Positions 4,342 to 54,975 of a stretch of DNA of 64,000 nucleotides are shown here, piece after piece. This DNA comes from Syntrophobacterales bacterium (GTDB taxonomy: Bacteria; Desulfobacterota; BSN033; WVXP01; G020346125), in contig CP070774.1 of NCBI GenBank assembly GCA_020346125.1, positions 1,565,147 through 1,629,146 of the forward strand. The letters run 5' to 3'. A program made the position numbers and the translations under genes. The notes under the pieces are model-generated. The model did not search any database, was not told the DNA's origin, and worked only from the letters and a program-made list of their open reading frames with translations. Within the stretch, counting starts at the first letter, position 1, and each line of letters starts with the position of its first letter.

Positions 4342-4659
4342 TAAAGATTACTCTCTATTCTAAAATCTCTTCTCGTTCAAGATCTTTTCTCTCCGAGCCG
4401 GCTGCCACCGTCCATTAACCCATTATTCCACCATTCCAGTACCCCAATTGCGAAGCCCCTAGGTTCTTCCTTTCTCCGCCGAAAACTATGCGCTTCTGGC
4501 CTGAAAGCATTAAGTGGATGAGCGCATCACCACTATAGGGAAGCGGGAAAGGCCGGTACTGGAATAATAGGAGTTGTGCCTCAAAACCCGATTCCTGGAA
4601 TCCCAGAGGACAGAAGTCTGAGGGCCCGGGAGGATGCAGGCTAAGGGAAAAAAGGGGAC

Positions 4660-5103
4660 CTAGACCGTTTCGAGGAGAGATTGTAATGTGAACTTACGAT
4701 CTTGTCTTTTTTTGGCCACCCTCTTAAATGCTACCGGGATATCAGCCATCAAGGAATACGATAGTTCAGCCACCGTAAGATAGAATTTCTCTATCTTATC
4801 CTCCATCTCCAGGGCCATCCGTAAGGCATCGGCCAGAGTTGTACCTGGGGCTGAATTAATAACAAATTCATAATCATCCGCATCGAGGCCCTCAAAAGAG
4901 TAACAGGCCTCAATGGTATCTGTTATCACCCCAAAATAGGTCTGTTTTATCACCTTCTCGAATCTCTTATTTTCCTTAATAAAAGACGAAAAGGTTTCTC
5001 CTGTTTTCGGATATCTACGGGCGTAATCCTGGTAGAATTCAGCGGACTCATTCTCTATCTTTGAGACAAAGCTCATGACCGCTGCCATTGTGTTTAATTT
5101 CAT
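4660..5103 (-). CDS. ferritin-like / rubrerythrin-like domain protein
   Basis: Helical protein with ExxY and E..E-type pairs (ENESAEFYQDY, ALEMEDKIEKFY). The ATG at 5103 overlaps the mmsA stop (TAATG), suggesting translational coupling. Confidence 0.5.
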   Translation of the reverse strand: MKLNTMAAVMSFVSKIENESAEFYQDYARRYPKTGETFSSFIKENKRFEKVIKQTYFGVITDTIEACYSFEGLDADDYEFVINSAPGTTLADALRMALEMEDKIEKFYLTVAELSYSLMADIPVAFKRVAKKRQDRKFTLQSLLETV

Positions 5104-6566
5104 TAGAACCACCTCTGAATAACTATCTTGGGGTCGGTGAAGAATCGGATGACATCTCTGCCTTGTCCATGTGTTACGCCAAAGAAGGAATCCTTCCGTC
5201 CGCCAAATGGGAAGAACGACATGGGCGCTACAATCCCTATATTGATGCCGACGTTACCTGCTTCCACATCATGTTGAAATTGTCTGGCCCATTTTCCGCT
5301 GGTAGTATAAATCGATGCGGCATTACCATAGGGGATGCCATTGATAATTCTTATCGCTTCATCCAGGTCCTTGGCCCTCAATAGAGAAGCCACCGGTCCG
5401 AAGATTTCCTCCCTGGCGAGGCTCATATCCGGTGTCACATTCTCAAAAACAGTCGGGTTAAGGAAACAGGTTTCCGGAACATCTCCCACGAGGTTTAGCT
5501 TCCTCCCATCAAGGGCCAGTTTAGCACCCTCTTTAATCCCTCTTTCAATAACCCCAGCGACCCTTTGTTTTGATGCTACATTTTGCAGGGGGCCCATCTG
5601 CACGGATTCATCAAGACCGTCGCCTACCTTTATGTTGGCTGCCGCCTCCACGAACTTATCCGCAAACCTCTTATAAAACGCATCATCACCAACTACCAGG
5701 GCATTGGCCCCAGATAGGCAGCGCTGGCCGGTATTGCCGAAGAATGACGACATTAGACTTGCCATAGAACTATCGAGTTCAGCATCGGGCATAATAACGA
5801 TAAAATTCTTGGCCCCAGTTTGGGCGATAACCTTCTTGCCAGCTTCACCGCACTTCCGGTAAACAATTCTGCCCACCGGCGTAGAGCCAACAAAGGTCAC
5901 ACCTTGAATATCAGGATGTTCCATGAGATTATTGGCTACATCCGTAGCCCCATTAACAAGATTCACCACACCCGGTGGAAGTCCTACCTCGTCAAAAAGC
6001 ATAAATAGGTCAGCCTGACTCATAGGGGCCCTGGGAGAAGGCTTAACGATGAAGGTATTTCCGCATGCAATGGCAAAAGGCAAGTACCATAGGGGCACCA
6101 TGAAGGGGAAATTGAAGGGAGCCAAGGTGCAAAAGACCCCCAAGGGCTGGTAAATGGCATATTCGTCAATACCCACTGCAATATCTTCCAGATTGAACCC
6201 CTGCATTAATGAAGGGATCCCCGAAGCCACTTCTACCATTTCAATGGCACGCCTGGTTTCACCTCTTGATTCATCGATTGTTTTGCCATGCTCAGTTGTC
6301 TGCACCCTACTCAGTTCATCGAATCTCTCCTCCATCAATTCAATCAGCCTCAAGAGATACCTGCATCTGGTCACGGGTGGGGTGTTTCTCCATTCCGGAA
6401 AGGCGTCTTTCGCCGCCTGAACTGCACGATAAACTTCGGTTTGCGTGCTCATAGGAACATGACACAAAAGCTTATCCCAGGCCGGATTTCGTACTTCTTC
6501 AAGCTCATTTGATTCAGAGGCGACCCATTCACCATTGATGTAATTTTGAAGTTTCCTGACCTCCAT
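5103..6566 (-). CDS. mmsA: CoA-acylating methylmalonate/malonate-semialdehyde dehydrogenase (ALDH superfamily)
   Basis: 487 aa. N-terminus NYINGEWV...NP, catalytic GQRCLSG, and FGG.K.S.FG tail typical of MMSDH. Confidence 0.85.
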   Translation of the reverse strand: MEVRKLQNYINGEWVASESNELEEVRNPAWDKLLCHVPMSTQTEVYRAVQAAKDAFPEWRNTPPVTRCRYLLRLIELMEERFDELSRVQTTEHGKTIDESRGETRRAIEMVEVASGIPSLMQGFNLEDIAVGIDEYAIYQPLGVFCTLAPFNFPFMVPLWYLPFAIACGNTFIVKPSPRAPMSQADLFMLFDEVGLPPGVVNLVNGATDVANNLMEHPDIQGVTFVGSTPVGRIVYRKCGEAGKKVIAQTGAKNFIVIMPDAELDSSMASLMSSFFGNTGQRCLSGANALVVGDDAFYKRFADKFVEAAANIKVGDGLDESVQMGPLQNVASKQRVAGVIERGIKEGAKLALDGRKLNLVGDVPETCFLNPTVFENVTPDMSLAREEIFGPVASLLRAKDLDEAIRIINGIPYGNAASIYTTSGKWARQFQHDVEAGNVGINIGIVAPMSFFPFGGRKDSFFGVTHGQGRDVIRFFTDPKIVIQRWF

Positions 6567-6843
6567 TTTTTCCTCCTTCGCCGTAGAGAATGTGAGCGTT
6601 TGGAAATTGATCGTCCCCTCCTCTTTCCACGTTTGTCCTCACATTCGGTCAGAGTAACGTAATGTAACGAATCCTGCCTTTGGAAGGCAAAAATATCACG
6701 AAGAAGTCTAACGGGTCAAGCAGAAAAGCATGCACGAGACATTGTGCCCAAGGAAGAAACGACGTAAGGAATGCTCGGAGAATTCTCCTCAAATTTTACT
6801 CCCTCCGCTCAGGGCGAATGCCCTGCTGAGAGCACGAGGATAG

Positions 6844-19747: not shown

Positions 19748-19965
19748 CTTCCCCGAAATTACCCTCTGAGCCTACCCTAAAAAACGAATATTCCCTTCCC
19801 GCCGTGAAATATCCTTACCATATTCCTAAACCTAAAGCAAGGCGACATTGAGTGGAGGTTCCGGACTTTTCTCAGGGGGACGTCATTGTTTCTGAGGGTA
19901 ATCCGCTGGAGAAGTGGGGTACACATTTAGGGTAATATACAAATTAGATGTTCCCCAGGTTCCCT

Positions 19966-20052
19966 GCAGCGAACATTAAAGAATTTTGGCTAACCATTTC
20001 TTAGTAAAGCGAACTCTAGAATGGTTTAAAATTCTTTTTAGAGAGCGAAAGG
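19966..20052. repeat. dispersed palindromic repeat, family 1, copy D (inner-unit type)
   Basis: CAGCGAACATTAAAGAATTTTGGCTAACCATTTCTTAGTAAAGCGAACTCTAGAATGGTTTAAAATTCTTTTTAGAGAGCGAA. Its reverse complement aligns with the inner unit of copy C. Confidence 0.55.
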
Positions 20053-20222
20053 GAATCTGGGAAACAGGCCGCACACCTTTGAAGGGATATTATCCTCTTT
20101 CCTCAGAGAGGGTTCCCTCTCCTCCGTTATGGAGTGTCACATTGTGAGATAGGAGCGAGAAATATTCTCCTTTTTTGGCTTTTGGACAGGAGGTTTTGCA
20201 ATCTCCTCCGAAGGGGTTGGGC

Positions 20223-20868: not shown

Positions 20869-21714
20869 TTATCCTTCAAGGGAGGATAGCCCCTCCTTCG
20901 CCCTTTCCCTCACCTTATCGTACTCATCCTGATAAATGGGAAGATCCTTATCTACCAAGACTCCGATGATAATCCTTCCCTCCAGCTCTTCGGATTTCAT
21001 CCGTTTCGCCTCTTGTACCGTCACGGCGTTGTCCCTCTGCCATTTCATCATGTCAACAGCAGAACCCAAAAGATTTTGCTTGCCGTATTGGATGTGGCAG
21101 TGGCTGATTACCTCAACAACTCCGAACCCCTTTTTCAGGATAGCCCTCTCGATTAAACTATCCAAGAGTTTGGCATGGTAGACCGTTCCTCTTCCCACAA
21201 ATACCGCCCCTGCCGTTACCGCCAATTCCGATATCTTGAATTCCTGCTCGATATTACTATAAACGGCCGTCGTTGCCCTCATACCATAGGGGGTGGTGGG
21301 CGAGTATTGGCCCCCTGTCATGCCGTAGACGTTGTTGTTGACGATGATGGCAGTCAGGTCGATATTTCGCCTGGCCGCATGGATGAAATGATTCCCCCCG
21401 ATGGCGATGGCATCGCCATCCCCCATAATGACGATGACGTTGAGGTTAGAGTTAGCGAGTTTGATTCCCGTGGCAAAGGTGAGGGCCCGTCCGTGCGTGG
21501 TATGGAGGGTGTTGAAATCCACATAAACGGGAATCCTTCCGGAACACCCGATGCCAGAAACCAAGACGATATCATCCTTTTCATAGCCGGTTCGATCGAT
21601 GGCCCTAATCAAGGCCCCCAGTATGATTCCCGTTCCACAGCCGGGACACCAGACATGAGGGAACTTCTTGTCGTGGCGAAGATATTTATAGATAAGCTTA
21701 GTAATCTCTGGCAT
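20869..21714 (-). CDS. korB: 2-oxoacid:ferredoxin oxidoreductase beta subunit (TPP-binding)
   Basis: WCPGCG, GDGD...GGNH TPP motif. The ATG overlaps the korA stop (TGATG). Confidence 0.9.
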   Translation of the reverse strand: MPEITKLIYKYLRHDKKFPHVWCPGCGTGIILGALIRAIDRTGYEKDDIVLVSGIGCSGRIPVYVDFNTLHTTHGRALTFATGIKLANSNLNVIVIMGDGDAIAIGGNHFIHAARRNIDLTAIIVNNNVYGMTGGQYSPTTPYGMRATTAVYSNIEQEFKISELAVTAGAVFVGRGTVYHAKLLDSLIERAILKKGFGVVEVISHCHIQYGKQNLLGSAVDMMKWQRDNAVTVQEAKRMKSEELEGRIIIGVLVDKDLPIYQDEYDKVRERAKEGLSSLEG

Positions 21715-22856
21715 CAGGACACCTCCCTAATCCTCTTCAATATCTGCTGTGGGGTAATCGTCAATCCATCCACCCTGTTTATCGTGTTCACCTTTGCCTT
21801 TCCCTCATTCACCCTCTTCACTTCACGCGAGATCTGGCCCATGTTCATCTCCGGAACTATGAGCATCTTTGCCTTTTGGATGACTCTCTCGACGGCTGTC
21901 CTCATAAATGGCCAGAGGGTAATCAACCGTAGCAAACCCACCTTCACTCCCTTCTCCCTGGCATCGATTACCGCCCTGCGTGCTGATCTGGCCACGGAAC
22001 CATAGGCGATGATGGCAATATCGGCATCTTCCAGTTGAAAGAACTCTCCCATCTGGATCTCCGGGAAGCCAAGGGTAATCTTGCGATGAATGCGATCCAT
22101 GAAGGGGCCGATTTCGTCGGACCTCAACGTGGGAAATCCCCGGATGTCATGGGCGAGGCCCGTCACATGAAAACGATAGCCATCCCCGAAAATGGCCATA
22201 GGAGAAACACCCTGGGTGGTATCCTCGTAAGGGATGTACCATTCTGGTGGAACCGTGGGCCTGATCCTGTCGATCACCTCCACCTCCTCTGGCCGAGGAA
22301 GAGTGATCTTTTCCCGCATATGACCAACGACCTCGTCAAAGAGCAAGATAACGGGGGTCCGATATTTCTCGGATAAATTGAAGGCCTTTACGGAGAGATC
22401 GAAGCACTCTCTGACGGTGGAGGGGGCTAAAACGATGGCGGGGTGATCACCATGAGTCCCCCATCTGGCCTGCATGACATCTCCCTGGGAGGGATAGGTG
22501 GGAATTCCGGTGCTGGGTCCTAACCTCATCACGTCCCCGACAACACACGGCACTTCGGCCATACATGCAAATCCCAGGTTTTCTTGCACAAGGGAAAAAC
22601 CTGGACCGCTGGTGGCCGTCATCGACTTGGTTCCCGCCAGAGAGGCCCCTATGATCGCCCCCATGCTGGCAATTTCATCCTCCATCTGGATAAAGGTTCC
22701 ATCTACTTGCGGGAGTTTAACAGACATGATCTCGGCAATTTCCGTAGCCGGGGTTATGGGATATCCCGCAAAAAACCGGCATCCGGCAACCAATGCCCCT
22801 TCAACTACGGCTTCATTCCCCTGCATCAGGAATTCCCTGGGGCGCCTCTTTTTCAT
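21714..22856 (-). CDS. korA: 2-oxoacid:ferredoxin oxidoreductase alpha subunit
   Basis: MKKRRPREFLMQGNEAVVEGALVAGCRFFAGYPITPATEI. AAGGAGG lies about 16 nt upstream of the ATG at 22856. The track ORF extension to 23030 is read-through inside korD. Confidence 0.9.
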   Translation of the reverse strand: MKKRRPREFLMQGNEAVVEGALVAGCRFFAGYPITPATEIAEIMSVKLPQVDGTFIQMEDEIASMGAIIGASLAGTKSMTATSGPGFSLVQENLGFACMAEVPCVVGDVMRLGPSTGIPTYPSQGDVMQARWGTHGDHPAIVLAPSTVRECFDLSVKAFNLSEKYRTPVILLFDEVVGHMREKITLPRPEEVEVIDRIRPTVPPEWYIPYEDTTQGVSPMAIFGDGYRFHVTGLAHDIRGFPTLRSDEIGPFMDRIHRKITLGFPEIQMGEFFQLEDADIAIIAYGSVARSARRAVIDAREKGVKVGLLRLITLWPFMRTAVERVIQKAKMLIVPEMNMGQISREVKRVNEGKAKVNTINRVDGLTITPQQILKRIREVS

Positions 22857-23154
22857 CTTTCCTCTCAACCCGCCTCCTTTTCCTTCTACTTTCCACCGTA
22901 ATGGCGAAATCGGGGCATCGAATCTCACACCACCCGCATCCCGTACAGGAATCCAAATCCTCCACAAAGGGATAGCCCTCTTCGTCGATAGCCAAAACCC
23001 CTTTGGGGCAGAAAGCGACGCATATCCCACAGGCCTTACACCACGCCTTGAAGATATCGATCTTCGTTACAGCGGCCCTCTTTGGTTTGGGCTGCTTATC
23101 CGGTGCTATTTCGCTTGCCCCTTCTGGGGCCTGACTTACCTTTTCCGCTTTCAT
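22813..23154 (-). CDS. korD: 2-oxoacid:ferredoxin oxidoreductase delta subunit (2x[4Fe-4S] ferredoxin)
   Basis: CKACGICVAFCP and CTGCGWCEIRCP motifs; first gene of the kor operon. Confidence 0.8.
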   Translation of the reverse strand: MKAEKVSQAPEGASEIAPDKQPKPKRAAVTKIDIFKAWCKACGICVAFCPKGVLAIDEEGYPFVEDLDSCTGCGWCEIRCPDFAITVESRRKRRRVERKDEKEAPQGIPDAGE

Positions 23155-23411
23155 CCCTTTCTTACTCCTCTCGTTTCATCATACCGTATGCAGGTTAAAA
23201 GTGTCAATTACAATAGGATACGCCGGCCCGTTTAAAGCCTGTCCCGGAAGCATCCCGTAAACAGGTCCTTCAAGCAGAAAGGGGGTAAGCGAAAAAGAAG
23301 GGGATGATTTGAAGGACCTTAGCCAATCGCTATGCAGTAGTGCCTGTTTCGACAGGCTTTGATCCAACAATCAGATGCGGAACAGGGGGCAGAACCCCCC
23401 ATGTTCACCCC

Positions 23412-24689: not shown

Positions 24690-24917
24690 TCATCCGTATC
24701 GATATTGTACACCGAACCCACCCCCGGGGTAATTCCAGGTAACCGACCCGTATATACAGGCAATCATGCACGTGCCACATTCGAGGCATCCGGTGAATTC
24801 GACCTGCATCTGGCCAGTTTGCTCATTGAGGGAATAGAGGTGGGCCGGGCATGAATAGATACAGAAGCGTTCGCAACTCCCCCACTTCCTGCGTATTAAC
24901 CTGAAATGGTGAATCAT
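24690..24917 (-). CDS. fixX: FixX-like ferredoxin-like protein (ETF-QO-associated type), orphan
   Basis: CPAHLY...GCLECGTC...WNYPGGGFGVQYRYG matches the FixX C-terminal signature. Start chosen at MIHHFRLIRRKW because the same start is conserved in the second repeat copy. The track ORF starts at 24941. Confidence 0.65.
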   Translation of the reverse strand: MIHHFRLIRRKWGSCERFCIYSCPAHLYSLNEQTGQMQVEFTGCLECGTCMIACIYGSVTWNYPGGGFGVQYRYG

Positions 24918-25220
24918 AATTTTCCATAATCCTGATATCAATGATACTTTATGGAAAAAATCTGCGTAATATGATATTCACTATATTTCATAGAAATTCA
25001 GGCATGTTTCCTAACCATGAGATCTTCTCGTCAAGGAAAAATCGATTTTTTGATAAGCTACCATTGCATCATATAAAATACAATTAAAAAGGAATAGCCG
25101 TATATCGGAAAAACCTAAAAGACTTTCGGATCACGTTCGGGATGAGGGATCCCTTATATATTAATGATTTATTAGCTAAACTCTCCTACAAGTTAACTTT
25201 AAAAACGAAAAGGCGTCCCT
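24885..25220. repeat. about 335-bp direct repeat, copy 1 (fixX 5' end plus upstream region)
   Basis: Aligns along its whole length with 32288-32612, with long identical blocks (CTGCGTATTAACCTGAAATG, CGATTTTTTGATAA.CTACCATTGCATCATAT, CGTATATCGGAAAAACCTAAA, TTAAAAACGAAA.GGCGTCCCT). Confidence 0.85.
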
Positions 25221-25291
25221 GACACTATTTAACATTACTTCAAGAGTGGAGAGGATATAATCTCCTTCCGAATATTAATTAGGAACATTGT

Positions 25292-25789
25292 ATGGAGATA
25301 CCGGAATTTACATCGCGGGATACCCTGAACAAGCTTTGGTGGCTGCATGATTCTTTCTGGCATGCAGTGCTGGTGAAGGAGTTCGGTCTGGAGCGGGCCA
25401 ACCGGATCAACCTCGAAGTTGCCGAGAAGATTTTCCGCATGATGACCAATCAACTTCTGCGAGAAAGGGTGATCCGGCGACCACGCTCGATTCAGGATTT
25501 GCTGTCTATCTTTAAGGTCATCTGGAAGAATGCCTTTTTTGACGACCTCTATATCAACGATCCAATCCACTATGACGGCGACACCGCCGTCTGGATTGGG
25601 AGCAGATGTCATGTCTATGATGCGCTTAAAAAGGCGGATATGCTTGAAGGGTATGAGTGCGGCTGCCAGTCAGTGCGCAACGGGGTGATGAAGGCCCTGC
25701 GCCTCAAGCCCCTTCACGAGATTAAGGAAAGCCTCGTAAGGGGGGACGGCCGCTGTGTGATCGAGATCACCTTTTCACCCGATGAATAA
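25292..25789 (+). CDS. hypothetical protein (W..HD..W N-terminal motif and C-terminal Cys cluster; possibly DUF6125/ATC-hydrolase-like)
   Basis: 165-aa ORF with LNKLWWLHDSFWHAVLVKEFGLERA..., later YECGCQ and GDGRCVIEI. The family assignment is from memory and weak. Confidence 0.45.
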   Translation: MEIPEFTSRDTLNKLWWLHDSFWHAVLVKEFGLERANRINLEVAEKIFRMMTNQLLRERVIRRPRSIQDLLSIFKVIWKNAFFDDLYINDPIHYDGDTAVWIGSRCHVYDALKKADMLEGYECGCQSVRNGVMKALRLKPLHEIKESLVRGDGRCVIEITFSPDE

Positions 25790-25892
25790 CATACTCTGAG
25801 GAAGATGAGGGCCTTTTTTATAGGTTATTCCCTGATCTATTATTACCATTTGAATAGGATAAAGATAGTTAAATATTAATATCGGGAATTTG

Positions 25893-26765
25893 TTAGTGAA
25901 TATCGTTTTTTATGGTCCAGTCGATGACCTCAATGGGAGATTTCAAGATTTCTGCGCCCGATGCCTTTAAGGCCTCACATTTGCTTTCTACCGTACCCGC
26001 TGAACCCCGAACAATGGCTCCGGCATGCCCCATGCATTTGCCTTCCGGAGAAAATCGTCCGGCGATGTAGGATGCAACAGGCTTCGTCATTCCATTTGCA
26101 ATGAACTCGGCCGCCTTCTCTTCCTGCATGCCCCCCACTTCTCCAACAATGATAACCGCATCGGTTTCATCATCAGCTTCAAACAGTTTCAAGATATCCG
26201 GTAAATTAGTAAGAATGACCGAGTCTGCCCCCATTCCTACAACAGCGCTTTGGCCGATGTCTTTTTCTGAGAGAATGCCCGCAAATTCATAGGAGAGGGT
26301 TCCACTCCGCGAAATGATACCGACCCGTCCGGGCGAAAAAAGTGATCCTGGCATGATACCCATCTTACCTTTTCCCGGAACCAAGATACCCGGCGTTGTG
26401 GGGCCCAGTGCCAAAACCTCTTTTTCTAAGGCATAAGCACGCATCTTAATGACGTCATGGACAGGGATATGTTCGGGAACCACGACAATAAGCTTTATTC
26501 CCGCATCCGCGGTTTCATAGAACGCGTCTAAGACAAACGGTGCCGGCACGAAAAATACCGAGGCGTTTGCTCCTGTCTCCTGAACCGCCTCCTCAACACT
26601 ATCAAAAACCGGCAAATCTTCGACGGTGTTGCCACCTTTTCCAGGTGTGACACCGCCCACTACGGTTGTGCCGTACTTCAGCATCCAACGGGTTTGAGTG
26701 CTTCCAATCTTGCCGGTTATGCCTTGGACAATCACGCGTGTTTTATCGTCAATAAGGATACTCAT
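25893..26765 (-). CDS. sucD: succinate--CoA ligase alpha subunit
   Basis: VIVQGITGKIGS, GHAGAIV phosphohistidine loop, SRSGTLSYE. Confidence 0.9.
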   Translation of the reverse strand: MSILIDDKTRVIVQGITGKIGSTQTRWMLKYGTTVVGGVTPGKGGNTVEDLPVFDSVEEAVQETGANASVFFVPAPFVLDAFYETADAGIKLIVVVPEHIPVHDVIKMRAYALEKEVLALGPTTPGILVPGKGKMGIMPGSLFSPGRVGIISRSGTLSYEFAGILSEKDIGQSAVVGMGADSVILTNLPDILKLFEADDETDAVIIVGEVGGMQEEKAAEFIANGMTKPVASYIAGRFSPEGKCMGHAGAIVRGSAGTVESKCEALKASGAEILKSPIEVIDWTIKNDIH

Positions 26766-26839
26766 CTGTACGCCTCGTCTTTTTTCGCCTTTTGTAGAGA
26801 TTTCACATAATTCACATCAGAATAGTTTCGCGTTACAGG

Positions 26840-27988
26840 TTACTTTTTCCCCACCAGTTCGAATAGACGATCCACCGCGATTTCGGTAGGTGCTTCTGTC
26901 ACCACATGCACACCGCCTGAACGGAATATCTCCCAGGTTTCTTCTTGGTGATTACCGAGTGCCTTGGCCACAATGGGCAATGTGACATTATGGTCCCTGA
27001 TATACCGAACAACTCCGCGGGCGCCTTCGTGGATGGGGTTAATGCCGCCATAGATATTGATAAAGATTGCCCGCAGGTTGACCTTCATTATAACGAGTTC
27101 CATACATTTATAGAGCAATTCTTCGGTAATACCCCCCCCGGTTTCTAGAAAATTAGCCGGCCGGAGGCGCTGGCCGATAATGTCCATGGTCGCCATACCC
27201 AATCCAGCGCCGGAGGCTATGATACCAATATCGCCACCCAAATCCACATACGTCACCCCAATTTCCCTACCTTTGCGTTCCAATGGATTTTCAATGCGCT
27301 CCGTCATCTGTGGCAGCGGGTACTGAATACGGGAAAGCGCTGAATTATCAATTTCAATCACAGAATCAACCGCCAGTAGGCCTCCTTGATACCCGGTTTT
27401 AAGAATCACCATTGGGTTGATCTCTGCAATAAGTGCATCAAACTGCGAAAAAACGCGATATAGACGGACCAGGACGTCTGCACAGAATGTGAGAAGACGC
27501 TCGGATAACCCTAGACGTCTCAGAAGCATCCGGGCCTGAAAGGGGTAAAATCCAAAGGTGGGATCGCAGTAAAACGATGCGATCTTATCCGGTGACGTGC
27601 GAGCGGTCTCTTCAATGTGGGCGCCGCCTTCTGTACTCACCACAACGACCGGTTTTCCTGAGAAACCGTCGACCGTTATACCCATATATAGCTCTCTTAA
27701 AATGTCGGCCTTTTCGCACACCATGAGCTTACGAACGGGGAGCCCCTTGATTTCGAAATTAAATAACGTTCCTGAGATCTCTTCGAGTTCTTCGGGAGTT
27801 GTAGCCGTTTTTACCCCCCCTGCAAGGCCCCGCCCGCCGACTAGCACCTGGGCCTTAAGGACGACCGGATAGCCAATCTCACCCGCTATAATCAGCGCAT
27901 CTTCTGTCGTCTCAGCAACACCCCGTCTGGGGACCGGTATCCCGACGCTTTCAAAGATATCTATTCCTTCATATTCATATAGTCTCAT
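26840..27988 (-). CDS. sucC: succinate--CoA ligase (ADP-forming) beta subunit-like, ATP-grasp
   Basis: MRLYEYEG...PVVLKAQVLVGGRGLAGGVK and GGNIG-like C-terminal CoA-ligase domain. Confidence 0.85.
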   Translation of the reverse strand: MRLYEYEGIDIFESVGIPVPRRGVAETTEDALIIAGEIGYPVVLKAQVLVGGRGLAGGVKTATTPEELEEISGTLFNFEIKGLPVRKLMVCEKADILRELYMGITVDGFSGKPVVVVSTEGGAHIEETARTSPDKIASFYCDPTFGFYPFQARMLLRRLGLSERLLTFCADVLVRLYRVFSQFDALIAEINPMVILKTGYQGGLLAVDSVIEIDNSALSRIQYPLPQMTERIENPLERKGREIGVTYVDLGGDIGIIASGAGLGMATMDIIGQRLRPANFLETGGGITEELLYKCMELVIMKVNLRAIFINIYGGINPIHEGARGVVRYIRDHNVTLPIVAKALGNHQEETWEIFRSGGVHVVTEAPTEIAVDRLFELVGKK

Positions 27989-28237
27989 GGTAAATTCATA
28001 ACCTCACACACATTTTTGACAATAAGCTTTGAATATTTGGAGCCCGAGGAGGGCTTTGTTCACAATATTTCCTCTATTAGTACATTTTTTTGGACACGTT
28101 TCCCCTTCCGTCTATTATCTTCAAAGAATATGTATCGCGGTTTTCAAAAATTGCCTGATTGGTAATTATATGTATGATTAAAAATTTAATCAAGAATTTA
28201 ATTGAAATGTGCTATTGAAATGTGCTAAGCTTGAAGT

Positions 28238-28939
28238 ATGAGCAAGTATAGAGGGGAAAAAAATGCGAACGGCCTGATTGATCACAGCCATAAGGCTTAC
28301 AAGGGCATTCGTCGAATGCTGTATCACAAAGAACTCGTTCCAGGCCAGAAGATCGCATATCGTGAACTTGCGGAACAATTACGCATGAGTCCAACCCCAA
28401 TCATCCAAGCACTCAAGTGGTTAGAGATTCAGGGCCTTGTTCGCCATGAACCCCACCGTGGGTATCATATAGAGCCATTCAGTTTGCGGGAGGTAGAGGA
28501 GATCTATGAACTCAGGGAATTATTGGAAATAGCGCTTTTACCCATAGCAATTGAACAGCTGAATGAAGAAGGCATACAGCAATTAAAGACGGCGCTTAAA
28601 GCCCATTTATCTGCGGTTCGGGAATTTTACCTCAAAGAACGGTTGTTCAAAAATATGGAGTTTCACCTGACCCTGGCTGCTCTCTCAAAGAAGGTGACCC
28701 AATTGAGAATACTCCGTAATATCTTTGATCTCCTATTTCTGAAATACGGAGGTAATTATTTACCCATTGCATCACTTAAATCTGTGGACCAAGAGCATCA
28801 GGAGATTTTCGACTGCGTTGTATCACGAAATATCAAAGGGGCTCAGACAATCCTATCCCGACATATCTCAAATGTCAAAAGGCAGGTATTGCAGAGCCTT
28901 CGGCAAATGCTGGAAGAGGATGAAGAATCTGAATATTGA
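28238..28939 (+). CDS. GntR-family transcriptional regulator with FCD (FadR C-terminal) domain
   Basis: wHTH (YRELAEQLRMSPTPIIQALKWLEIQGLV) and a helical FCD domain with H..L/H motifs. Confidence 0.85.
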   Translation: MSKYRGEKNANGLIDHSHKAYKGIRRMLYHKELVPGQKIAYRELAEQLRMSPTPIIQALKWLEIQGLVRHEPHRGYHIEPFSLREVEEIYELRELLEIALLPIAIEQLNEEGIQQLKTALKAHLSAVREFYLKERLFKNMEFHLTLAALSKKVTQLRILRNIFDLLFLKYGGNYLPIASLKSVDQEHQEIFDCVVSRNIKGAQTILSRHISNVKRQVLQSLRQMLEEDEESEY

Positions 28940-29327
28940 TGGCTTCCTAAAAAGTCCAACTTCTGCGTTGTGCTGCATCCCCTGCTCTGTTAAATTGAAG
29001 GTAGCCATATCAATAGATATGGGATATAGAAGCTGCTTGAAAACAGTAACACCAAACAAAGAAAATATTTAACAGGGTAAATCACTGCAGTGTACTGTAA
29101 GTACGCCTCATTATTCAGGATTTGCGCGCCTTGAATTTGGAGCTTTTTACTTTGCCATCGAATTTTGACTTTTTACGAGATCATCAATATTAATGTCCTT
29201 ATCAAAGAAAAATTAGAGTGTTGCCAGAGCAGGACCCGATCGTATGGCCGATCGACCGCGACTTCGCTCTCTGGGTAGTTTTACATTTAGTTTTCAATAG
29301 TATTCAAATATCTCAGGAGGAATGAAA

Positions 29328-30764
29328 ATGGGGCTCAAGACAAAAGAGGAGTATATCGAATCATTGCGACAGATGAACCCGACCGCGTATATGTTCGGAG
29401 AGAAACTCACCAATATAGTGGACAACCCGCGGCTCCGGGCGGGCATTGAAGCAACCGCTGCAACGTATGAAGTGGCTGAGATGGATGAATTTCGTGATCT
29501 TGTGGTTACACAGAGTCCGTTGATCAACGAGCCGGTCAATCGGTTCACCCTGCCTCCATCTTCCATCGATGATCTTGTCGCACGAGTAAAGGTCAACCGG
29601 AAACTTGGAAACTGGGTCGGGACATGTCACCAACGATGCACGGGGCTGGATTGTCTCTCTACCTTGTCTATCGTTACTTATGATATTGACCAAAAATACG
29701 GAACAAACTATCACAAAAACTTCATTGAGTTCCTTAAACATATGCAAAAGAATGACCTGACGGGAAATGCCGGTGTGACGGATGTTAAAGGGGATCGCTC
29801 CCTGAGCCCTCACGAACAGCCCGACAAGGATATGTTTCTCCACGTGGCGGAACACCGGGATGACGGTATTATTGTCCGAGGGGCCAAGGCCCATCAGACA
29901 GGATCCCTTTCGTCCCATGAGATTATCGTCTTGCCCACGCGAGCAATGCGAGAAGGGGATGAAGATTACGCAGTTGCCTTTGCCATTTCCTCGGATACGC
30001 CAGGGTTGATCCATGTTGTAGGCCGTTCAAGCCTGGATACACGGGAACTGGATGGCTGTGATCTCGGGAACATCAGATACTCTAAATACTGCCCAACCCT
30101 TATCTTTAATGATGTTTTTGTCCCCCGGGAGCGGGTGTTTCTTTGCAGCGAAACAGAATTCGCGGCAGAGATGGTTGTACGATTTTCTTCTTTCCACCGA
30201 CAGAGCCACGGTGGTTGTAAAGCCGGAAGAATTGACTGCATGATCGGTACAGCCCTCACAATGATGGATTACAACGGAACTACCAAGGCCAGCCATCTCA
30301 AACAAAAGGTAATCGATATGCTTCATAGGGCCGAAACCCTCTATGGATGCTGTCTGGCAGCATCTTATGAAGGCAAGCAGGAGCCTTCCGGCCACTATTT
30401 TATTGATACGGTTTTGGCTAATGCTTCGAAAATCCATGAGGGCAAGGAACTGGCCGAGGCAAGTCGGCTGATGGTGGACATCTGCGGTGGCTTCGTTGCT
30501 GATTTGCCTTCGGATCGTGATTTTACAAATTCGGAAATCGGTCATCTGCTCAAGAAATATATGAAAGGTGCAGACAAATTCCCGGTAGAGAACCGCATCA
30601 AGATGTACCGACTTGCAGAAAAACTGGCCCTGGAAAGCGCAGATACCATCTCGGATATCCATGGCGGCGGCTCCCCGGAAGCACATCGCGTAACCATTTT
30701 TCGCGAAAGTGATATAGAGAGTAAGAAGAAGTCGGCCAAACGATTGGCCGGCATTGACGATTGA
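29328..30764 (+). CDS. 4-hydroxybutyryl-CoA dehydratase / vinylacetyl-CoA isomerase (AbfD) family protein
   Basis: HpaB/AbfD-family fold pattern. CHQRC (CxxxC) and HRQSHGGC (Hx6C) sit at the positions recalled for the AbfD [4Fe-4S] ligands. The second ATG (29328) has better SD spacing than 29322. Confidence 0.8.
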   Translation: MGLKTKEEYIESLRQMNPTAYMFGEKLTNIVDNPRLRAGIEATAATYEVAEMDEFRDLVVTQSPLINEPVNRFTLPPSSIDDLVARVKVNRKLGNWVGTCHQRCTGLDCLSTLSIVTYDIDQKYGTNYHKNFIEFLKHMQKNDLTGNAGVTDVKGDRSLSPHEQPDKDMFLHVAEHRDDGIIVRGAKAHQTGSLSSHEIIVLPTRAMREGDEDYAVAFAISSDTPGLIHVVGRSSLDTRELDGCDLGNIRYSKYCPTLIFNDVFVPRERVFLCSETEFAAEMVVRFSSFHRQSHGGCKAGRIDCMIGTALTMMDYNGTTKASHLKQKVIDMLHRAETLYGCCLAASYEGKQEPSGHYFIDTVLANASKIHEGKELAEASRLMVDICGGFVADLPSDRDFTNSEIGHLLKKYMKGADKFPVENRIKMYRLAEKLALESADTISDIHGGGSPEAHRVTIFRESDIESKKKSAKRLAGIDD

Positions 30765-30860
30765 TCCATGTTGAAGCGTTTTTGGTGGAATGAAAGGGCC
30801 TTATATAAGGCCCTTTTTAATGGCTCTATAAAGCAGAGATCGGTCACCAGAAGGGGTCAT

Positions 30861-31664
30861 CTATGAGTTGCGGGCTGGCAAGGCCGCGTAGTCTTGGATA
30901 CCTCTTATTATGCTCTCGGCAAAATCGTCCTGATATGTATCAGAGATTGATCTCTTGCATTCTCTGGGGTTTGATATAAAGGAGGTCGCAATCAATATAG
31001 ACGGCATCTGTGTGCCTATTAGGACATAGAAAGGTGCCTGCTTCACTCCTCGATCCTTAATATGGGAATATTTCTTATTCATATGTTCGTATAACGACTT
31101 TTGAACATGATCTGCCAATCGCCTTGATTCATCGATTTTCTCATTAGGCATGAGATCAGATAGAATCTTCTCCAAATCACTCATTCTTTCTTTTGAAGAA
31201 TTATCATTCAAGACTTGCACTTTGGATGCTTCTTCATCCGCCGCGAAATTCAAATAATAGGTCTCAATACCATAAACTCTCTGATCTCTGTAAGCGTTGC
31301 AATGAATAGATATGAACAGGGGTACTTTCTTGAGGTTCGCAATAGCCACTCGTTCTTCAAGGGGGATGAATTCGTCGCTTTCGCGGGTCATGATTACTTC
31401 AACATTAAGTTTATCACGGACCTTTTTGGCAAGCTTTTTCGTTATTGCAAGGTTTATATTCTTTGAGTAAACACCTTCTATATACCCGGGGGCTCCGAAA
31501 TCTTTGCCCCCGAATCCTGGGTCTATTGCGATTCTCTTTATGCTGAGGTCGCACTTAAGCCGTATAGTTGAAGTAGATGATGCGCATGGCCAGAATACAA
31601 CAACCAAACCCAACACAGCCAACCAGTATGGATTCCCTTTACTAAACATGATGAGTAGGCACAT
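30861..31664 (-). CDS. N-acetylmuramoyl-L-alanine amidase (Amidase_3)
   Basis: IAIDPGFGGKDFGAPG, IMTRESD, FISIHCNA motifs. Start uncertain: the track ORF begins at 31721 and overlaps the tauE-like gene, so MCLLIMF at 31664 was chosen. Confidence 0.8.
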   Translation of the reverse strand: MCLLIMFSKGNPYWLAVLGLVVVFWPCASSTSTIRLKCDLSIKRIAIDPGFGGKDFGAPGYIEGVYSKNINLAITKKLAKKVRDKLNVEVIMTRESDEFIPLEERVAIANLKKVPLFISIHCNAYRDQRVYGIETYYLNFAADEEASKVQVLNDNSSKERMSDLEKILSDLMPNEKIDESRRLADHVQKSLYEHMNKKYSHIKDRGVKQAPFYVLIGTQMPSILIATSFISNPRECKRSISDTYQDDFAESIIRGIQDYAALPARNS

Positions 31665-31686
31665 AGCGTTGAAATTATCCCCTTGC

Positions 31687-32091
31687 CTACTGCTCACAAC
31701 GTTCACGTGAGACATCAGCATGATTCACAGACAGGCTGGAGGTCCAACCGAACAGGATGTTAAGACCGATGATGATAAGGAACACCGCAAATATCTTCTT
31801 GAGAGTTTGCGCGGGCAGGTAGTTGGCCAAGCTCGCACCGATCAGTGCCCCAACAACTCCACCGACTGCAACCAAAGCGGCAAGCTTCAGGTCCACATTT
31901 CCCGCACAATAATGTCTGAGCACCCCTGCCAAAGCGGTTGGAACAATGACAGCAAGAGATACGCCAATGGCCTCGTGGATAGTCAGGCGAACCAGAAGTA
32001 GCAGTGCGGGAACAAGGATGACACCACCACCGATACCGAGCAATCCGCTGAGCACTCCTGCAACTACACCGACAATAACCAAGTTGATCAT
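31687..32091 (-). CDS. TauE/SafE-family anion exporter-like membrane protein (short, 4-TM form)
   Basis: GLLGIGGGVILVPALLLL signature. 134 aa is roughly half the usual family length. Confidence 0.65.
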   Translation of the reverse strand: MINLVIVGVVAGVLSGLLGIGGGVILVPALLLLVRLTIHEAIGVSLAVIVPTALAGVLRHYCAGNVDLKLAALVAVGGVVGALIGASLANYLPAQTLKKIFAVFLIIIGLNILFGWTSSLSVNHADVSRERCEQ

Positions 32092-32287
32092 GGTCTCCTC
32101 CGTTCTTTGTGGATAACGGGCTGCGAGATAAACTGCAGCCTCGACTTGGGGAAAATAATGAACTGCTGGTTCATTAAAACTAGGTAGATGTTAGGCTGCT
32201 TTATAGAGAATAAATTGCAAGTAGTTCATCATTTTTTTCAACAAAGAGGGCGAAGTGGACGCCGTTTATCAATTAATATACAGAATA

Positions 32288-32612
32288 TTTTCTGCGTATT
32301 AACCTGAAATGTTGGATCATAATCCTGTATAATACTATTATAATGATATTTTATGGAAAAAAATCTGCGTAATATTAAATTTTATAGAAATTCAGGTATT
32401 TTTTTTTAACATCAGATCTTCTAACAAGGGAAATAACGATTTTTTGATAAACTACCATTGCATCATATTACATTCAACCAAGAAGGGGTAATCGTATATC
32501 GGAAAAACCTAAAGGATTTTTGGATCAGGAAAATGAGAGACACCCTTAAATTATAAAGATTTAGAAGCCAAACCCTCTCGAAAGTTAACCTTAAAAACGA
32601 AAGGGCGTCCCT
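32288..32612. repeat. about 325-bp direct repeat, copy 2 (contains a 15-codon fixX-start stub)
   Basis: See copy 1. The minus strand reads ATG ATC CAA CAT TTC AGG TTA ATA CGC AGA AAA TAT TCT GTA TAT TAA = MIQHFRLIRRKYSVY*. Confidence 0.85.
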
Positions 32613-32790
32613 AAATACCACTACAGACACTTCCACCCAAAATTATGCCTTTAAAGCCGTATTTTTCCTATATAACCAGGTGCTCAATAAGGTTTTGGAC
32701 GAAAAAATAAGCGCGGTCCGTGCTCAAAAGCCTCAGAGATTGCCAACTGTTATGAAGAAACAGGAAGAAAATCGCATTGTCTCCCGCTAA
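32557..32790 (+). pseudogene. tyrosine recombinase (integron-integrase / Xer-like) N-terminal remnant
   Basis: Reads ...TSTQNYAFKAVFFLYNQVLNKVLDEKISAVRAQKPQRLPTVMKKQEENRIV*. This matches the SAM-like N-domain pattern sTqNqAlsAl.FlY..VL....l.....k.pkrLPvVLs.eEv. No catalytic domain follows, and the ORF is bounded by stops at 32554 and 32788. Confidence 0.55.
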
Positions 32791-32889
32791 GTCTTTCTGC
32801 TTCTCGCACAAACTCATCACCTCAACCAGGCCGCCCTGTTTCTGGGCTCTCCCGCAATTAAGCCAGTGCCGCCTGCGAATGGTTGGCCT

Positions 32890-32917
32890 TTGATTTTTCG
32901 GGTTAAGCTTGTATAAT
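32890..32917 (+). promoter_or_regulatory. candidate sigma70 promoter for coaBC (extended -10)
   Basis: TTGATT (32890-32895), 16-nt spacer, TG-TATAAT (32910-32917). Confidence 0.4.
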
Positions 32918-32951
32918 GTTATGATAGTTAGATTTAAAATGGGGTTGTAAA

Positions 32952-54790: not shown

Positions 54791-54975
54791 ATCTCTGAAA
54801 AAGCTCGCTCATCGCTGCTCAAGAATATTTTTTCGACCATTCTAAAGTTCGCTTCACTGCAAATCCCAAACTCGCCCTCCGGGCTTAAACATAGGATTTG
54901 CAACCGTTTCGCTTTACTAAGAATGGTTACCGAAAAAATCTTTAATTCGCTCTCAGAGATCCCTTTTTCAGTTTT
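54791..54975. repeat. dispersed palindromic repeat, family 1, copy C (composite, nested)
   Basis: The outer arms match copy A in reverse orientation (ATCTCTGAAAAAGCTCGCTCATCGCTGCTCAAGAATATT ... TCGCTCTCAGAGATCCCTTTTTCAG). The interior carries a copy-D-type unit (CGACCATTCTAAAGTTCGCTT...TACTAAGAATGGTTACCGAAAAAATCTTTAAT). That unit is itself split by a GCAAATCC...GGATTTGC hairpin. Confidence 0.6.

Follow-up and report, generated by a model that had tools for sequence, protein, structure and literature searches.

In pseudo-compound transposons and units flanked by miniature inverted-repeat transposable elements (MITEs), cargo genes lie between two direct copies of a short element. Campbell-type insertion-duplication also leaves its insert between direct repeats, and the integron platform comprises the integrase gene intI, the site attI and the promoters Pc and Pint. 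Tandem accretion of decayed integrative elements into arrays of cis-mobilizable elements (CIMEs) and integrative mobilizable elements (IMEs) has been documented, and in such arrays the repeats are short att sites that derive from the 3′ end of the target gene, often a tRNA gene (PMC5704250). Here we describe a locus that resembles each of these systems in part. It lies in a 64,000-nucleotide stretch of a Syntrophobacterales bacterium (assembly GCA_020346125.1, contig CP070774.1, positions 1,565,147 to 1,629,146; hereafter the window), in which two diverged copies of a discrete, non-coding unit of about 330 bp, which we call R, bracket a set of genes between a truncated fixX gene and coaBC. The locus is an ordinary, untidy rearrangement scar, and the explanation that we favour, with a little better than even confidence, is that an imported patchwork replaced a resident operon by recombination, cut fixX and is bracketed by the diverged R copies.

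Compared with repeat-flanked composite units, the locus likewise has two direct copies of R around cargo genes, but R lacks terminal inverted repeats, a target duplication, a transposase partner in view and other known copies. As in Campbell-type insertion-duplication, the insert lies between direct repeats of a few hundred base pairs, each with one chromosomal and one imported flank; in contrast to it, relatives have no R at the corresponding site, identity between the copies is only 78%, the inserted DNA is a patchwork without the backbone of a plasmid or an integrative and conjugative element (ICE), and a 7.4-kb operon was removed as well. The likeness to an integron platform consists of an IntI-family fragment that adjoins a non-coding region with divergent promoter-like sites, and of heterologous DNA that starts at a sharp edge, whereas there is no attC, no cassette array and no core site at the edge, and the integrase 5′ end is not in R. 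With the CIME and IME arrays (PMC5704250) the locus shares a mosaic of decayed pieces, a recombinase remnant, a variable chromosomal spot and bounding direct repeats, but its own repeats are orphan sequence of 330 bp that matches no gene, there is no tRNA or tmRNA gene, and the integrase is represented only by a fragment of 55 codons.

The two repeat copies, and a short open reading frame (ORF) that begins in one of them, are placed as follows.

24886–25220, no strand assigned: R1, non-coding, 335 nt, defined by its alignment with R2 and without a homologue in relatives.
32289–32612, no strand assigned: R2, 324 nt, defined by its alignment with R1, with a left edge backed by the independent contig L096.
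32273–32320, minus strand: 15-codon ORF, MIQHFRLIRRKYSVY followed by a stop, in R2 and its flank.

R1 and R2 are collinear direct repeats, as found both by MAFFT alignment and by a repeat finder, and the coordinates given for them in the initial annotation of this stretch were right to within 1 nt. They are separated by 7068 nt. The blastn alignment covered 338 columns at 78.7% identity (E 1.7e-56), and in the global alignment 261 of the 337 columns were identical, with 61 mismatches and 15 gap columns. An identity of about three-quarters, as first estimated, is thus borne out, but the identical blocks of 20–35 nt that were described with it are shorter than thought: the exact runs common to the two copies measure, longest first, 21, 20, 18, 17 and 14 nt, and, if one mismatch is allowed, the largest block extends over 32 nt. 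The identity is clustered in blocks, since the sum of exact runs was beaten by only 0.5% of permutations of the match/mismatch vector (p 0.005). The ends of R are sharp and common to both copies, and all four flanks are unrelated. A two-copy profile (nhmmer) recovered R1 and R2 as the sole copies in the window, and a window search with the three longest blocks, allowing up to 2 or 3 mismatches, gave matches confined to R1 and R2. On the minus strand, both copies open with an ATG and read MI(H/Q)HFRLIRRK. The three changes within this 11-codon ORF all fall at third positions and are too few to count as evidence, and no codon periodicity was found among the R1/R2 mismatches, so that coding selection in R is not supported.

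The left end of R1 lies within a gene. Relatives of the locus were found by means of the TAXI protein encoded next to it, and their contigs were fetched (fetched loci are numbered with the prefix L); L009 and L010 are the best covered (73% TAXI identity) and L006 is the closest (83%). Two features describe the junction.

24690–24917, minus strand: chimeric ORF of 75 amino acids, made of about 11 codons from R1, a few junction codons (WGS) and then FixX residues 32–91.
24878–24885, no strand assigned: junction or filler, outside both the R1/R2 homology (which ends at 24886) and the relatives' fixX homology.

The intact FixX of relatives has 91 amino acids and starts MTIEEKLA...SICKNCRERFCIYSCPAH (reading CKNCRERFC), whereas the 75-residue ORF of the window reads MIHHFRLIRRKWGSCERFCIYSCPAH. 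Homology to the intact FixX of three relatives (L006, L007 and L009) begins at about 24872–24882, at residue 32 of 91 (blastn and tblastn), and the ORF matches only positions 39–95 of the 95 in the NCBIfam FixX model. It is without the N-terminal 31 residues of FixX, including the first cysteine of the CxxC, and so falls short of a full-length FixX with two cysteine motifs (about 91–95 residues). In the public record this chimera is annotated as a protein in a 95-member ferredoxin cluster; among the cluster members listed, the 75-residue form is unique and the 14 others all have 91 residues. Judged by its sequence, the fixX of the window is a truncated chimera, cut at about codon 31, to which the left end of R1 donates the ATG and about 11 codons. 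The initial annotation had taken the start of R2 for a 5′ stub of fixX. The shared start is indeed present in both copies, but the ATG and 11 codons are repeat sequence that relatives lack, and the true FixX N-terminus (MTIEEKLA...) is missing; the R2 start is therefore not a fixX stub, and R itself, on the same comparison, is not derived from fixX.

These results bear on the proposal with which that stub had been linked, namely that a circular element carrying homology to the fixX upstream region integrated by one Campbell-type crossover and left R2 as a duplicated fixX start without a gene. We regard Campbell-type integration in this form as possible but unlikely. R is not the native upstream region of fixX, since relatives have fixC followed by an intact 91-residue fixX and no R, and the two copies are only 78% identical. 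One observation speaks for it: in a lenient DNA alignment, the fixX remnant (fixX′) adjoining R1 on its left and the left flank of R2 were collinear over about 50 nt at about 62% identity (p about 0.01), and if this similarity were real, the R/fixX′ junction would have been duplicated along with R. It was lost under stricter scoring, which aligned nothing between fixX′ and the left flank of R2 (p 0.5). The FixX profile picked out another spot instead (p about 0.01); about 2% of the ordinary tiles of the window score at least as high, and two of these are unrelated to fixX or ferredoxin genes. Pfam gave no match on the R2 left flank, and a decayed piece of fixX at that place would be a marginal call.

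As a separate observation, the fixX remnant at 24693–24872 differs from L006 and L007 at 8–13% of third positions, compared with 25% in the adjacent TAXI gene, and it carries three lineage-specific amino acid changes at positions invariant among relatives, including R to G in YPRGG. This pattern hints at relaxed selection or at a recombination history of its own, the numbers being too small for significance.

We compared the gene order around R with that of the relatives. To the left of R1, the FixX-like ORF is followed by a TAXI-TRAP solute receptor and a 2-oxoacid:ferredoxin oxidoreductase, and coaBC lies to the right of R2 (Pfam and NCBIfam); in general, the gene identifications of the initial annotation were broadly right by these two collections. 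In L009 and L010 the order is sigma factor, Zn-ribbon protein, coaBC (on the opposite strand), 4HBT thioesterase, family III CoA-transferase, acyl-CoA dehydrogenase, etfB, etfA, fixC, fixX, TAXI, DctM, ferredoxin and the oxidoreductase alpha, beta and gamma subunits, and the order etfA-fixC-fixX-TAXI is likewise present in L006. Thus, in relatives fixC stands directly upstream of the intact 91-residue fixX without R, which is absent from all of L006–L011. The homology between the window and its relatives stops inside fixX (at about 24877) and resumes at 32888, 64 nt upstream of coaBC, at the following feature.

32888–32951, plus strand: conserved region upstream of coaBC, from which the window again aligns with relatives, with a promoter-like TTGATT-16-TATAAT.

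No trace of the 4HBT, CoA-transferase, acyl-CoA dehydrogenase, etfB, etfA or fixC genes was found anywhere in the 64-kb window. About 8.0 kb (24878–32887, both R copies included) therefore stands where relatives have a 7.4-kb operon from 4HBT to fixC, and since relatives hold an operon at this site, the change is a replacement and not an insertion into an empty site. An empty site, for which the initial annotation had proposed a search of related genomes, was absent from these relatives. Among the relatives themselves, sequence similarity ends directly past the coaBC promoter, which indicates that the spot is labile, a rearrangement hot spot in the clade. In L008 (GCA_975958265.1), positions 4347–6569 between coaBC and TAXI hold an OMP decarboxylase, a 4HBT gene and a 77-residue ORF; this locus is without the CoA-transferase, acyl-CoA dehydrogenase, electron transfer flavoprotein (ETF) and fixCX genes at the site and is a second lineage lacking them there.

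The DNA between the R copies, together with the sequence next to R2, contains the features listed here.

25256–25789, plus strand: DUF6125-like gene unit, with its ATG at 25292 and a weak match to Pfam DUF6125.
25884–30824, no strand assigned: abfD-gntR-sucCD cluster, 82–87% identical in nucleotide sequence to L012–L014.
25893–26765, minus strand: sucD.
26840–27988, minus strand: sucC.
28238–28939, plus strand: gntR, a GntR/FCD regulator.
28923–29200, no strand assigned: MITE-like insertion of 278 nt that separates gntR from the abfD-like gene and has terminal inverted repeats of 41 nt.
29322–30764, plus strand: HpaB/AbfD-family gene.
30861–31721, minus strand: Amidase_3 (AmiC/CwlD-like) gene; the public record has a later start and 267 residues.
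31687–32091, minus strand: short TauE-family gene, 134 residues, covering profile positions 1–112 of 237.
32614–32787, plus strand: integron-integrase-family fragment of about 55 codons without a stop, positions 55–119 of about 315.

By sequence comparison, this bracketed DNA is a mosaic of at least four independent pieces: the DUF6125 gene; the abfD-gntR-sucCD cluster with its MITE; the amidase and the short tauE; and the integrase fragment. Homologues of the DUF6125 gene were found in five loci (L091–L095) at 83–85% DNA and 83–90% amino acid identity, in unrelated contexts, and their homology to the window begins at 25256–25281. For the second piece, GTDB species genomes were scanned with the SucC-like protein, which gave 79 loci. 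The homology of L012–L014 covers exactly sucD-sucC-gntR-abfD and ends at 25883/4 and at 30817–30824. The distance between abfD and sucC is 6 kb or less in 38 of the 79 loci, and all four genes occur together in 16; their recurrence across loci indicates a functional cluster, contrary to the initial view that the six bracketed genes were functionally unrelated. The sucCD-like pair with an HpaB/AbfD-family gene, often together with a GntR gene, is also found in metagenome-assembled genomes labelled Deltaproteobacteria/Desulfobacterales, Dehalococcoidia/Chloroflexi, Latescibacterota and others (L012–L090), and the sucCD-HpaB/AbfD cluster is thus a conserved one.

The element at 28923–29200, which overlaps the gntR stop, is by its sequence features a MITE-type insertion that splits the abfD-gntR-sucCD cluster. 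In L013 and L014 gntR and abfD abut (alignment blocks 6–16 nt apart, called ORFs at most 38 nt apart), compared with about 380 nt between them in the window. A copy of 229 nt with 93% identity lies at L095:4159-4386, with a fragment at L095:800-861, and partial copies of about 95% identity were found in the coaBC-4HBT spacer of L009–L011. Runs of N occur inside MITE copies at L009:2520-2604, L010:2572-2592 and L011:693-694, and are probably scaffold gaps caused by the MITE repeat. In the third piece, the amidase and tauE genes and their surroundings were without a counterpart among the fetched loci and the viral contigs. A second 134-residue member of the TauE cluster (clustering at 90% identity or more) exists in another public Logan assembly, and the gene may thus be naturally short instead of recently truncated.

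The mosaic weighs further on the single-crossover integration of a circular element. The direct repeats do bracket DNA that is missing in relatives, and a recombinase remnant adjoins R2, so that this much of the Campbell-type footprint described in the initial annotation stood. The composition check suggested there also came out in its favour: five of the bracketed genes have lower G+C content at third codon positions (GC3) than the other 42 genes of the window (Mann-Whitney p 0.0005; p 0.0085 with the DUF6125 gene included). On the other side, relatives have no single R at the site, the insert is not one coherent element, and the bracketed DNA holds no replication, transfer, mobilisation or intact integration gene. 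An assembly artefact, that is, a chimeric join or a collapsed repeat, was also considered; the source is a single 2.07-Mb contig from an uncultured organism. We hold this to be the least probable of the explanations considered, and no specific point favours it: an assembler cannot be misled by copies that are 78% identical and share no exact run longer than 21 nt, and an independent Logan contig (SRR14739665, 1656 nt) is 100% identical to window positions 32299–30644 across two junctions. This contig crosses the abfD/amidase junction and reaches 11 nt into R2, and at least that junction is therefore not an artefact of this assembly.

The presence of a MITE with copies in other genomes gives some weight to another explanation, in which R would be a small, non-autonomous mobile element with two independent insertions, and the intervening 7 kb would be the chance content of a rearrangement-prone region. 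The sharp, common ends of R, its four unrelated flanks and the divergence of relatives immediately upstream of the coaBC promoter would fit such an element. However, R has no terminal inverted repeats (its ends, TTCCTGCGTA... and ...GGCGTCCCT, do not match in inverted orientation), no target-site duplication could be read directly from the sequence of its flanks, no third copy came up in the 64 kb, in the related loci (about 1.4 Mb) or in the scans of collections, and neither of the interrupted genes (fixX and intI) has its other half beyond R. We therefore consider two independent landings distinctly unlikely.

The tyrosine-recombinase remnant that had been noted directly outside R2 was confirmed and assigned to the integron-integrase family. 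The fragment is TIGR02249 positions 55–112 (E 5.3e-11, 42 bits against a cut-off of 265), its sole NCBIfam match, and is without the N- or C-terminal remainder; the IntI-specific insertion falls in the missing part. An integrase family hidden Markov model (HMM) matched it with E 3.6e-22, residues 64–115 of Vibrio cholerae IntI4 (PDB 2a3v) matched it with E 0.014, and a HMMER search of 1.84 billion representatives gave 524 with E of 1e-3 or less, the best at 2.3e-10; a word-based homologue search with the fragment found no match. Integrase homology is detectable from within 2 nt of the right edge of R2. On the plus strand, in frame with the fragment, the right half of R resembles by eye a decayed IntI N-terminus, but its candidacy as the 5′ end of the integrase gene was rejected, because an HMM of the N-terminal 62 positions had no match in any frame and frameshift-tolerant alignment was no better than with shuffles (p 0.16 and 0.32).

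Since the integrase fragment points away from R, R sits where attI, Pint and Pc would be. This allows the explanation that R served as attI and promoter region in a chromosomal integron that has since decayed, or as the att-proximal arm of integrative elements accreted in tandem, with the shared left edge as a site-specific crossover point. Back-to-back promoter-like sites in the left 60 nt of R1 agree with it, the paired motif CTGCGTAWTA in each R copy could represent recombinase-binding repeats, and tandem accretion of decayed elements is on record (PMC5704250). We nevertheless judge this explanation very unlikely: a search for attC-like sites (RYYYAAC...GTTRRRY hairpins) returned no candidate in the 64-kb window, the core site GTTRRRY is absent from the R edge, the 54–62 N-terminal integrase codons that would be expected inside R were undetectable, a native chromosomal gene and not a cassette lies beyond R1, and a single integrase fragment is present, without any tRNA or tmRNA gene in the window as a target. 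More speculative again, and slightly less probable to us, is that R is a new kind of portable module for recombination and regulation, linked to integron-type integrases and resembling an attI that has no cassettes. Recombination at its left edge would then place the outward promoter, ribosome-binding site and start codon of R in front of the DNA beyond. If this were true, such a module would create chimeric genes such as R::fixX′ and would allow the capture of repeat-flanked gene patches.

A consensus scan for promoters flagged three sites within R.

24901–24930, plus strand: promoter-like CTGAAA-18-CATAAT in R1.
32304–32333, plus strand: promoter-like CTGAAA-18-TATAAT in R2, at the position homologous to the R1 site.
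24913–24941, minus strand: promoter-like TTGATA-17-TATGAT, flagged in R1 only and facing fixX′.

The conserved blocks of R include CTGCGTAWTA, CGTATATCGGAAAAACCTAAA and CTACCATTGCATCATAT. Each R copy has two occurrences of the first of these, with a spacing of 73 nt, and the rest of the window has none, with 0.08 chance matches expected. The block-wise identity, the shared promoter-like site and the paired CTGCGTAWTA together make a promoter/operator role the likeliest present function of R, one that is plausible from the sequence and that R probably still has in both places; in this respect the initial suggestion that the conserved blocks are a reused promoter or operator gained from the clustering (p 0.005) and from the one site shared by both copies. 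Reuse of a GntR operator was rejected as a candidate, because the conserved motif of the gntR-sucC intergenic region is absent from R. Transcription from the shared plus-strand site would run through R for about 280 nt, and one could ask whether R is the gene of a structured RNA (leader, riboswitch or small RNA) that was duplicated with its promoter. RNAalifold did find a few compensatory pairs, for which two sequences give covariation no power. No Rfam family reached the gathering threshold, and none was found inside R even at E of 1 or less; the folding energies could not be told from those of dinucleotide shuffles on both strands of both copies (z −0.8 to +0.9), and we consider a structured RNA highly improbable.

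In the recombination scar that we favour, imported DNA replaced the 4HBT...fixX operon, cut fixX at about codon 31 and left a patchwork of about 8.0 kb (24878–32887) bounded by two R copies and an integrase fragment. DNA bearing R may have recombined with a resident R, in the manner of a Campbell-like insertion-duplication, or an R-flanked unit may have arrived as such; either would have followed on a decayed element that had encoded a tyrosine recombinase. The abfD-gntR-sucCD cluster would have been hit by the MITE at a later stage. In the resulting arrangement R1 would serve fixX′-TAXI and the DUF6125 gene, and R2 would serve tauE and the amidase.

Several results weigh against this account. 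No homologue of R was found in about 1.4 Mb of related loci (95 fetched loci); a 20-mer of R had no match in GTDB species genomes, and its 5 matches in JGI metagenomes were all chance ones in unrelated AT-rich DNA; the three R blocks had no match in viral contigs, nor did R2 with its flanks in plasmids or phages. No single-R state between fixX′ and coaBC and no R-carrying donor turned up in these searches. With a divergence of 22% and a longest identical run of 21 nt, the two copies are a poor substrate for a RecA-type crossover, which makes a recent homologous event or ongoing loop-out unlikely. The ends common to both copies between four differing flanks would also fit a mobile unit. As regards the regulatory part, the promoter-like consensus matches are no commoner than in shuffled sequence and are leads only, and the block-clustered identity could stem from patchy gene conversion instead of functional constraint.

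The genes beyond fixX′ show further differences from the relatives. A relic of 29 residues of the fused TRAP permease DctM, which has 671 residues in L009 and L010, follows the TAXI gene at 23285–23371 on the minus strand, so that the TAXI receptor is an orphan; L006–L008 are also without a permease gene at this position. The oxidoreductase alpha ORF at 21714–23030 on the minus strand (438 residues, GTG start) overruns the separate 105-residue ferredoxin gene of relatives (tblastn 23154–22843), and the mechanical ORF call here fuses two genes. A second small, conserved intergenic element lies at 19950–20087, with a partial copy at 54908–54951; in inverted orientation it aligns at 85% identity with the spacer between etfA and fixC in the closest relative (L006:1267-1403), and it holds the hairpin-like AACCATTTCT...AGAATGGTT.

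The value of these findings lies mainly in the annotation and the evolutionary history of the locus, with no bearing on a long-standing open question. A 75-residue protein that is annotated as an ordinary gene of a ferredoxin cluster is a truncated chimera without a FixABC partner nearby. The lineage has lost an acyl-CoA dehydrogenase/ETF/FixCX electron-transfer operon at this locus and has the abfD-gntR-sucCD cluster of CoA metabolism in its place. If R were a functional promoter cassette, the locus would provide a small example of the reuse of regulatory sequence during gene-order turnover.

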